Positions 37,657 through 39,140 of a DNA stretch of 64,000 bases are shown piece by piece. How positions within the stretch are numbered: the stretch's first letter is position 1; every line of letters starts with the position of its first letter. Where the stretch lies: contig OZ024746.1 of assembly GCA_964016885.1 (NCBI GenBank), positions 28,768,001-28,832,000 on the forward strand, written 5' to 3'. The translations under genes were made by a program, and so were the position numbers. The stretch comes from Eledone cirrhosa. Taxonomy: Eukaryota. The notes under the pieces were generated by a model. That model was not told the DNA's origin. It was given only the letters and a program-made list of their open reading frames with translations, and made no database searches.

Positions 37657-37879
37657 TATATATATATATATATAAGTATGTACACGTACATACATATATG
37701 TATACCGACGTACAGCAGTATGTATATATATATATACATACATGCACACATATATATATGCACGTATGGATTCACCGAACATTTATTATAATGCTCGGTG
37801 TGTTTGTAAACAAACATCCCGTATTAAGCCGTAGTGTCTAGCAACCACCGTTGCTCGTTTGTTCAACACTGACAAAGGA

Positions 37880-37922
37880 ACGCTGTACTAGTTTCAAGCT
37901 TGTTAGCTATCGTCAGCAACGT
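37880..37922 (-). ncRNA. Minimal type I hammerhead ribozyme
   Basis: Minus strand: acgttg-CTGACGA-tAGCTaacaAGCTt-GAAA-cta-GTA-cagcgt. Confidence 0.88.
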
Positions 37923-38297
37923 ATACCTTCCTGCCAGATTGTTGAACGTATATACTTACCTTATGCATATTAACGGCTGAGTAGCCCAATTTGCATATCG
38001 AGTGGGTTAATCGGCCGGGTGCACCGAAAACGATAAACGGAAAAAATGAAACGATATTTCATTTCCCACTCTTAGTACGGCTGTTACTTAAATATAAGTA
38101 TGTACACGTACATACATATATGTATACCGACGTACAGTAGTATGTATATATATACATACATGCACACATATATATATGCACGTATGGATTCACCGAACAT
38201 TTATTATAATGCTCGGTGTGTTTGTAAACAAACATCCCGTTTTAAGCCGTAGTGTCTAGCAACCACCGTTGCTCGTTTGTTCAACACTGACAAAGGA

Positions 38298-38340
38298 ACG
38301 CTGTACTAGTTTCAAGCTTGTTAGCTATCGTCAGCAACGT
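38298..38340 (-). ncRNA. Minimal type I hammerhead ribozyme
   Basis: Same sequence as the 37880 copy. Confidence 0.88.
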
Positions 38341-38765
38341 ATACCTTCCTGCCAGATTGTTGAACGTATATACTTACCTTATGCATATTAACGGCTGAGT
38401 TGAATAAACGAACAACGGTGGTTGCTAGACACTACGGCTTAATACGGGATGTTTGTTTATAAACACACCGAGCATTATAATAAATGTTCGGTGAATCCAT
38501 ACGTGCATATATATATGTGTGCATGTATGTATATATATATATACATACTACTGTACGTCGGTATACATATATGTATGTACGTGTACATACTTATATTTAA
38601 GTAACAGCCGTACTAAGAGTGGGAAATGAAATATCGTTTCATTTTTTCCGTTTATCGTTTTCGGTGCACCCGGCCGATTAACCCACTCGATATGCAAATT
38701 GGGCTACTCACCCGTTAATATGCATAAGGTAAGTATATACGTTCAACAATCTGGCAGGAAGGTAT

Positions 38766-38808
38766 ACGTTGCTGACGATAGCTAACAAGCTTGAAACTAG
38801 TACAGCGT
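38766..38808 (+). ncRNA. Minimal type I hammerhead ribozyme
   Basis: acgttg-CTGACGA-tagctaacaagctt-GAAA-cta-GTA-cagcgt; predicted cleavage after 38802. Confidence 0.88.
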
Positions 38809-39067
38809 TCCTTTGTCAGTGTTGAACAAACGAGCAACGGTGGTTGCTAGACACTACGGCTTAATACGGGATGTTTGTTTACAAACACACCGAGTATTAT
38901 AATAAATGTTCGGTGAATCCATACGTGCATATATATATGTGTGCATGTATGTATATATATACATACTACTGTACGTCGGTATACATATATGTATGTACGT
39001 GTACATACTTATATTTAAGTAACAGCCGTACTAAGAGTGGGAAATGAAATATCGTTTCATTTTTTCC

Positions 39068-39140
<73 letters not shown>

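Follow-up and report, generated by a model that had tools for sequence, protein, structure and literature searches.

Penelope-like elements (PLEs) and the non-LTR retrozymes of animals are the closest described systems to the locus analysed here. Published PLE insertions take the form of partial tandems; many carry an inverted, 5'-truncated copy at their 5' end, a tail of 30-40 bp is present at one end, and insertion is biased toward microsatellites (PMC8557442; PMC3846280). How the inverted copies form is described there as unresolved (PMC8557442). Ribozymes on opposite strands, 100-700 bp apart, are documented in Schistosoma; the canonical metazoan type I hammerhead is thought to be active as a dimer, and PLEs carry a minimal form (PMC4209133). 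In work on Poseidon, a purified PLE protein both cleaved and extended the two strands of AT-rich DNA. It initiated at two internal RNA sites, which delimit the tail, and used mainly uncleaved RNA; dimerisation is predicted (PMC11167929). Mobilisation of animal retrozymes by PLEs was deduced from co-occurrence, shared ribozymes and pLTR homology (PMC7229834; 10.64898/2026.07.22.740005), and a 2026 preprint presents these retrozymes as non-autonomous PLE derivatives on the basis of co-occurrence and pLTR homology (Li et al., bioRxiv 10.64898/2026.07.22.740005).

The locus at positions 37670-39073 of the window (the whole 64,000-nt stretch of DNA that was analysed) consists of two partial tandems of a 418-nt non-coding hammerhead repeat, joined head to head (Table 1). 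Like metazoan non-LTR retrozymes as presented in Cervera and de la Pena 2020 (PMC7229834) and Li et al. 2026, it has a non-coding tandem unit in the range of 150-450 bp with low GC, one type I hammerhead per unit and a strongly self-paired predicted circle, and those elements are likewise proposed to be moved by PLEs. Judged on size, GC, hammerhead and absence of an ORF, the 418-nt unit appears to fit the retrozymes of PMC7229834. Inverted arms, a tail and fixed 3' ends are not described in the portions consulted, whereas the locus has all three; the words "inverted" and "tail" had 0 matches each in PMC7229834, and in the preprint "inverted" occurred in a reference title only and "tail" had 0 matches. 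The arrays here are also short compared to those of metazoan non-LTR retrozymes, with fewer than 2 units per arm.

EN+ PLEs (Penelope/Poseidon, Neptune, Nematis and Naiad), as described in PMC8557442, PMC3846280 and PMC11167929, share with the locus the partial tandem, the head-to-head inverted 5'-truncated copy, the tail at one end, the (TA)n target and a hammerhead in the repeat. In contrast to them, the locus is without an RT or endonuclease ORF, both of its arms are multimers, its hammerhead is canonical rather than minimal, and its tail is approximately 59 nt instead of the published 30-40 bp. Non-autonomous Chlamys PLEs such as MRC1 are also non-coding PLE dependants with multicopy head-to-tail insertions; however, they are green-algal and mostly without canonical hammerheads, and similarity to an autonomous 3' end was shown for Chlamys (PMC8557442). 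A literature search of main texts, few of them from subscription journals, found neither the 418-nt family nor any retrozyme that is both inverted and multimeric; Repbase-type libraries may already list the family. In the twin priming of L1, reportedly described by Ostertag and Kazazian in 2001, each target end is said to prime cDNA, and short microhomology accompanies the head-to-head joining of the two 5'-truncated pieces. The second priming site of L1 varies and the pieces do not overlap, whereas both sites are fixed at this locus and the arms overlap by more than one unit.

Table 1. Features of the locus, of related copies and of the neighbouring PLE. Coordinates are those of the window; unit positions (u) count from u1, the base right after the predicted hammerhead cut, in a unit of 418 nt.
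Feature	Coordinates	Strand	Description
Arm A	37670..38400	minus	u322-418, u1-418, u1-212; ~726-730 nt; 1.74 units; 3' end at inner site, without tail; two hammerheads
Arm B	38399..39073	plus	u19-418, u1-271; 671 nt; 1.61 units; 3' end at outer site, with ~59-nt tail; one complete hammerhead
Head-to-head (5'-5') junction	38399..38400		GT fits both arms; u322 joined to u19; asymmetric
Left (TA)n target	37655..37674		20 nt TA repeat; overlaps last 5 nt of arm A
Right (TA)n target	39071..39130		60 nt TA repeat; overlaps last 3 nt of arm B
Terminal tail	39015..39073	plus	u213-271; at this end only; two small hairpins (~u203-220, ~u238-266)
Predicted type I hammerhead 1	38298..38340	minus	Core at -38334
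Predicted type I hammerhead 2	37880..37922	minus	Core at -37916
Predicted type I hammerhead 3	38766..38808	plus	Core at +38772
Full unit between two predicted cut sites	37886..38303	minus	Predicted circular monomer -139.3 kcal/mol; z = -8.0 vs 60 dinucleotide shuffles
Copy c45 (older, head-to-head)	45205..45729		Tail-only minus arm (~u268 to u205-211) and plus arm u217 to u211 (0.99 unit); join palindromic, 6-nt overlap
Copy c57 (head-to-head)	57455..57969		Minus arm u271 to ~u146; plus arm u257 to u211 (0.89 unit)
Copy c20 (older)	20171..20988	plus	1.8 units, one orientation; ends at outer site
Copy c18 (solo tail)	18664..18709	plus	~u217-266 between two TA runs
PLE 3' half, Neptune/Nematis-type	62600-64000	minus	Runs off the window end

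Architecture of the locus and its predicted ribozymes

The first-pass annotation of this stretch had described approximately 1.75 units on the minus strand joined to approximately 1.6 units on the plus strand, with a 2-nt GT overlap near 38400 and both 3' ends pointing outward into (TA)n. Each of these observations was borne out: the measured arms match almost to the base, the GT fits both arms, and TA repeats lie at either end. Neither arm extends beyond the GT. An overlap of at least 2 letters occurred in 17.7% of 20,000 random pairs of unit positions; the GT is therefore uninformative by itself and was rejected as a mechanistic clue. No target-site duplication was readable inside the (TA)n target. 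The units of both arms differ by 7 substitutions (u25, u32, u63, u80, u93, u166 and u327) over approximately 1,400 nt, or about 0.5%, and by two TA-run length variants. Because these alone separate the units, the insertion is young, in agreement with the earlier description of the units as nearly identical. Position u327 is G in both arm A units and C in arm B and in copy c57. Region GC was 0.32-0.37, and the 418-nt period was missing from the Tandem Repeats Finder output.

Adjacent to the left target, at 37319-37654, is a 336-nt element with terminal inverted repeats beside TA, single copy in the window and partly multi-copy in the sequencing runs, which we take to be a Tc1/mariner-pogo-like MITE. 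The right TA of this element expanded into the (TA)n tract that served as the retrozyme's target.

Every unit contains a type I hammerhead motif (core CUGACGA, GAAA, cut after GUA) with a predicted 6-bp helix I, 4-bp helix II and 2-bp palindromic helix III. A descriptor scan gave 9 hammerhead matches in the window, 6 of them in the 418-nt family, compared to a mean of 0.02 and a maximum of 1 in 100 shuffles. The core and helices were retained in 6 aligned copies, with helices II and III invariant and loop II variable; helix I was 97% paired, one pair being changed on both sides (UG/GU/AU), and covariation was weakly above shuffles (23/500 shuffles). Rfam returned no hammerhead at the gathering score in the whole window, and the 126 matches obtained on 37600-39150 with a threshold of E=10 likewise included none; the ribozyme assignment is therefore based on the motif and its helices. 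The weak Rfam matches (TA-hairpin miRNA-like and others, E up to 10) were rejected as compositional. Ribozyme-motif scans of metagenome contigs and of viral contigs gave 0 and 0 matches. With two consecutive complete predicted ribozymes, arm A could in principle release a 418-nt monomer.

No ORF of 110 or more codons was found within the locus, nor did the 2 frames overlapping its left end have a Pfam match (94 frames scanned in the window). An LTR was absent, and no PBS or PPT was seen by eye. There is no RT or GIY-YIG ORF within the locus, which is therefore not an autonomous PLE. Within the unit, a long TA-rich hairpin at 38500-38595 (u115-205) scored 50 bits with the mir-297 model against a cut-off of 90; its match to miRNA precursor models is probably compositional, and the hairpin is a possible Dicer/ADAR substrate.

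Transcription across the locus had been expected to give long dsRNA with ribozymes on both strands. The first part of this expectation held in prediction, as the minimum free energy structure of a plus-strand read-through contained 610 long-range pairs, from 37667:39017 to 38285:38399. The second part did not, since the ribozyme would be in sense orientation in arm B only and paired with its antisense copy. A regulatory role via dsRNA is unsupported so far.

Fixed 3' ends and the origin of the head-to-head join

Five copies of the family, including the locus, are present in the window and together occupy 3,311 nt. The head-to-head plan was found in 3 of the 5. The 3' ends of all 8 arms map to one of two sites about 60 nt apart in the unit, with 3 of them at u208-212 and 5 at approximately u266-271; each of the three inverted copies has one inner and one outer 3' end. 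TA repeats directly follow all 8 of the 3' ends and are short at c20, whose two hammerhead cores have GUU triplets. The 5' breakpoints, by comparison with one another, differ in all window copies. Ribozyme cut sites are crossed by 5/8 arms, and the solo tail c18 is an insertion consisting solely of the stretch between the two start sites.

The locus had been regarded as a singular event. This view was abandoned, as the shape is the usual one for PLEs in PMC8557442, PMC3846280 and PMC4209133 and recurs in two more of the five copies. From the sequence, the one-sided tail, inverted 5'-truncated copy, partial tandem and microsatellite target match the published PLE signature. The twin priming from both target ends that the first-pass annotation had suggested fits well because the 3' ends recur at the same two positions of the unit. 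We consider it very likely that the locus is a PLE-type retrozyme insertion and likely that both ends were target-primed in a single event. Taken together, the 418-nt unit is probably a non-autonomous non-LTR retrozyme that uses PLE machinery, and the locus one insertion primed from both target ends.

Self-priming or a template switch is an unlikely origin for the inversion. Under that scenario, a target-primed cDNA or an antisense template would fold back to give a palindrome, and either an offset switch or subsequent deletion at the centre would account for the asymmetry. Head-to-head palindromes of Adineta Penelope copies were read in this way in PMC3846280, the c45 join is itself palindromic, and both arms of the locus come from one lineage. 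However, the 38399 join has no palindrome (300 nt mirrored about it are 25% identical, and 113 nt separate the nearest inverted-repeat arms), and fold-back alone does not account for a second fixed end about 60 nt from the first, which 3/3 inverted copies have.

Part of the stretch was present in 20 run rows from 16 studies, and four of the 23 runs listed (X1, X7, X4 and X21) were compared over 37185-39080. None of those listed was an RNA run, a result that has no bearing on expression. Minus-to-plus joins at other breakpoints numbered at least 11 in X1 and at least 6 in X21. These 17 are depth-ranked, drawn from the best 15 of 73 and 12 of 64 rows, and exclude a skip within one strand (37899-38106) as well as three rows at 38590/38596 whose orientation is other than minus-to-plus; some may be mis-placements at hairpins. 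An inner end followed by (TA)n was also found in X7, which is another sample (at least 1 contig), and in X21 reads. The X21 reads run from 38590 to 38089-38098 (19 and 16 reads) and show a tail-to-tail arrangement in which (TA)n separates two inner ends; therefore, separate insertions into one tract do occur. The summed contig depth of X1 over the unit was 6-9 x 10^5, compared to 4.6 for one flank contig, and is not a copy number. Pieces of the unit 155-156 nt in length, with 1 difference each on 37762-38065, were found in X4, a run labelled as another organism; they may reflect a close relative, horizontal transfer or contamination.

An assembly chimera or fold-back read artefact at 38399, which the first-pass annotation had allowed for, is highly improbable. 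A piece bridging the join was not among the 24 listed of approximately 11,974 pieces, the region is repeat-dense, and PLE structures are reported to trouble assemblies (PMC8557442). Nevertheless, the locus is not a fold-back because the join is asymmetric and the flanks are unrelated; the arms also differ at several sites, as do their 3' ends. Two other copies share the plan, each with its own join, and both the X1 short-read contigs and the X21 raw reads contain other minus-to-plus joins. In addition, an X1 contig is identical to the left flank over 292 nt, a match that is not independent because X1 may be the assembly's own sample.

Two independent 5'-truncated insertions back to back in one (TA)n tract, or recombination between neighbouring copies, would also produce two arms. 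The family is dense in the window, the facing inner ends in X21 are of this kind, and u327 differs between the arms. Such an origin is nonetheless very unlikely, as no target TA lies between the two 5' ends and one inner plus one outer end in all three inverted copies fits a single event, with a chance of about 1 in 8 if ends were drawn evenly. Further, both arms agree at u38, u176, u199, u249 and u402, where 59-96% of X1 contig depth (which is not a copy count and includes older subfamilies) has another letter. Because these five letters, in the minority in X1 depth, are common to both arms, one source lineage is indicated for the two.

The unit could, finally, be the terminal repeat (pLTR) of a full-length autonomous PLE, with the arms as 5'-truncated stumps. 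PLE copies are often reduced to terminal repeats, according to the preprint (bioRxiv 10.64898/2026.07.22.740005), and the tail and inversion are PLE traits. We find this extremely improbable for the locus, as the unit is joined to itself head to tail, across u418/u1 and u271/u272, in 4/5 copies without coding sequence between, and the ribozyme has the canonical 6-bp helix I and 4-bp helix II rather than the minimal PLE form (PMC4209133). The unit may have descended from a pLTR.

PLE machinery and other repeats in the window

The PLE 3' half near the window end represents a candidate class of helper. It has an RT C-terminal region with a CX4CxxC linker, an in-frame stop at 63485-63487, a GIY-YIG domain (Pfam PF01541, E=8.7e-8; 1 of the 94 frames scanned) and a repeat with CCAAT/TATA-like boxes that contains a minimal hammerhead at -62825 and terminates in (TA)n. 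The linker is a mark of Neptune/Nematis (PMC8557442). Comparison of its repeat (62590-63200) with the 418-nt unit showed similarity only in TA-rich stretches: 3 of 4 comparisons were within the range of 100 shuffles, and the fourth exceeded it only over TA repeats. Because its repeat has no match to the unit, this element shows that the machinery is in the genome and not that it is itself the partner of the unit.

A second hammerhead family was observed at 56846-57139 as a 294-nt imperfect palindrome with 91% arm identity, in which the core at +57057 is mirrored on the minus strand; it looks like a stump-sized inverted PLE end. A 68% relative of this palindrome lies at approximately 29400-29560 on the minus strand, with a core at -29554. 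Next to it, at approximately 29610-29780 (minus), a short coding-like fragment is cut by a (TA)n run harbouring the second hammerhead family, and by eye we take it to read like a PLE RT N-terminal motif. Another palindrome, at 40342-40761 and centred at 40551/40552, is TA-rich and has 210-nt arms that are 84% complementary with no spacer. Minisatellites were found at 36647-37179, 34952-35161, 45859-46635 and 49125-50135 (periods 30, 25, 48 and 60), and the genome is rich in microsatellites.

Template, proposed mechanism and significance

In the mechanism that we propose, a PLE would supply the unit with reverse transcriptase and GIY-YIG endonuclease. Transcription of a copy with two hammerheads would yield an uncleaved multimer, a 418-nt circle after self-cleavage and ligation, or both. 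The positions of the ends suggest that the PLE protein would bind near u200-275 and cut both strands of a (TA)n tract. One target end would then prime at about u271 and the other at about u212, the positions at which the arms are seen to end, and the 59 nt between them would become the tail. Each cDNA passes uncut or re-ligated ribozyme sites, presumably by displacement, to reach 1.6 and 1.7 units here. The unfinished cDNA ends would be end-joined head to head with little or no microhomology and then filled in. In such a product, both 3' ends would point outward, the central join would vary, and only one of the ends would carry a tail.

A multimeric or circular template had been suggested from the length of the arms. 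A template spanning uncut ribozyme sites is upheld, with arms A and B crossing 2 and 1 cut sites, respectively; rolling on a circle is indistinguishable here from copying an uncleaved linear multimer, and we regard a circle and a linear multimer as about evenly balanced. A cleaved linear monomer is excluded as template without jumping because it would limit the arms to 212 and 271 nt. Each arm is longer than 1.5 units, whereas simple twin priming on a single RNA should stop the outer arm at the inner primer; therefore, strand displacement or two RNAs would be needed. The u327 difference between the arms hints weakly at two templates. Neither u80 nor u327 was accepted as proof of this, because both variants could have arisen by recurrent mutation in a large family.

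A more specific version, which is possible but which we hold only tentatively, is that a single circular retrozyme RNA serves both target ends, each priming at one of the two fixed sites, and that the joins mark where the polymerases meet. The outer cDNA would often halt at the inner primer, leaving c45 and c18 with arms made of the tail alone. The inner cDNA would often halt after one lap, within the tail, as in the plus arms of c45 and c57. At 37670-39073, both polymerases would have displaced each other and rolled on. Inner arms stopped in u212-271 in 2 of 3 cases (P about 0.06) and outer arms in u200-230 in 2 of 5 (P about 0.05), both windows being chosen post hoc. Among the 17 listed run joins, 8 had an end in u200-230 (P 0.001-0.005) and 9 lay within 20 nt of the ribozyme cut; these windows were also post hoc, and hairpins are located at both places. 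The junction ends are not close in the folded circle, as u19 pairs with u363 and u322 is unpaired, and proximity of this kind was rejected for the locus.

The locus is a real, recent insertion and a clear case of a known PLE process, with an architecture that is ordinary for a PLE. The 418-nt family supports the idea that Penelope enzymes move ribozyme repeats, and its value is as mechanistic evidence: the family itself bears the PLE integration footprint (two start sites, a one-sided tail, inversion and (TA)n) on a non-coding unit. A short, young and abundant family with many different joins makes the models testable by breakpoint counts, and the unit offers a substrate for in vitro work. If true, priming of both target ends on one shared circle would explain the PLE tail, the head-to-head inversion and the retrozyme tandems together, and would be genomic proof that the circles of animal retrozymes serve as PLE templates.
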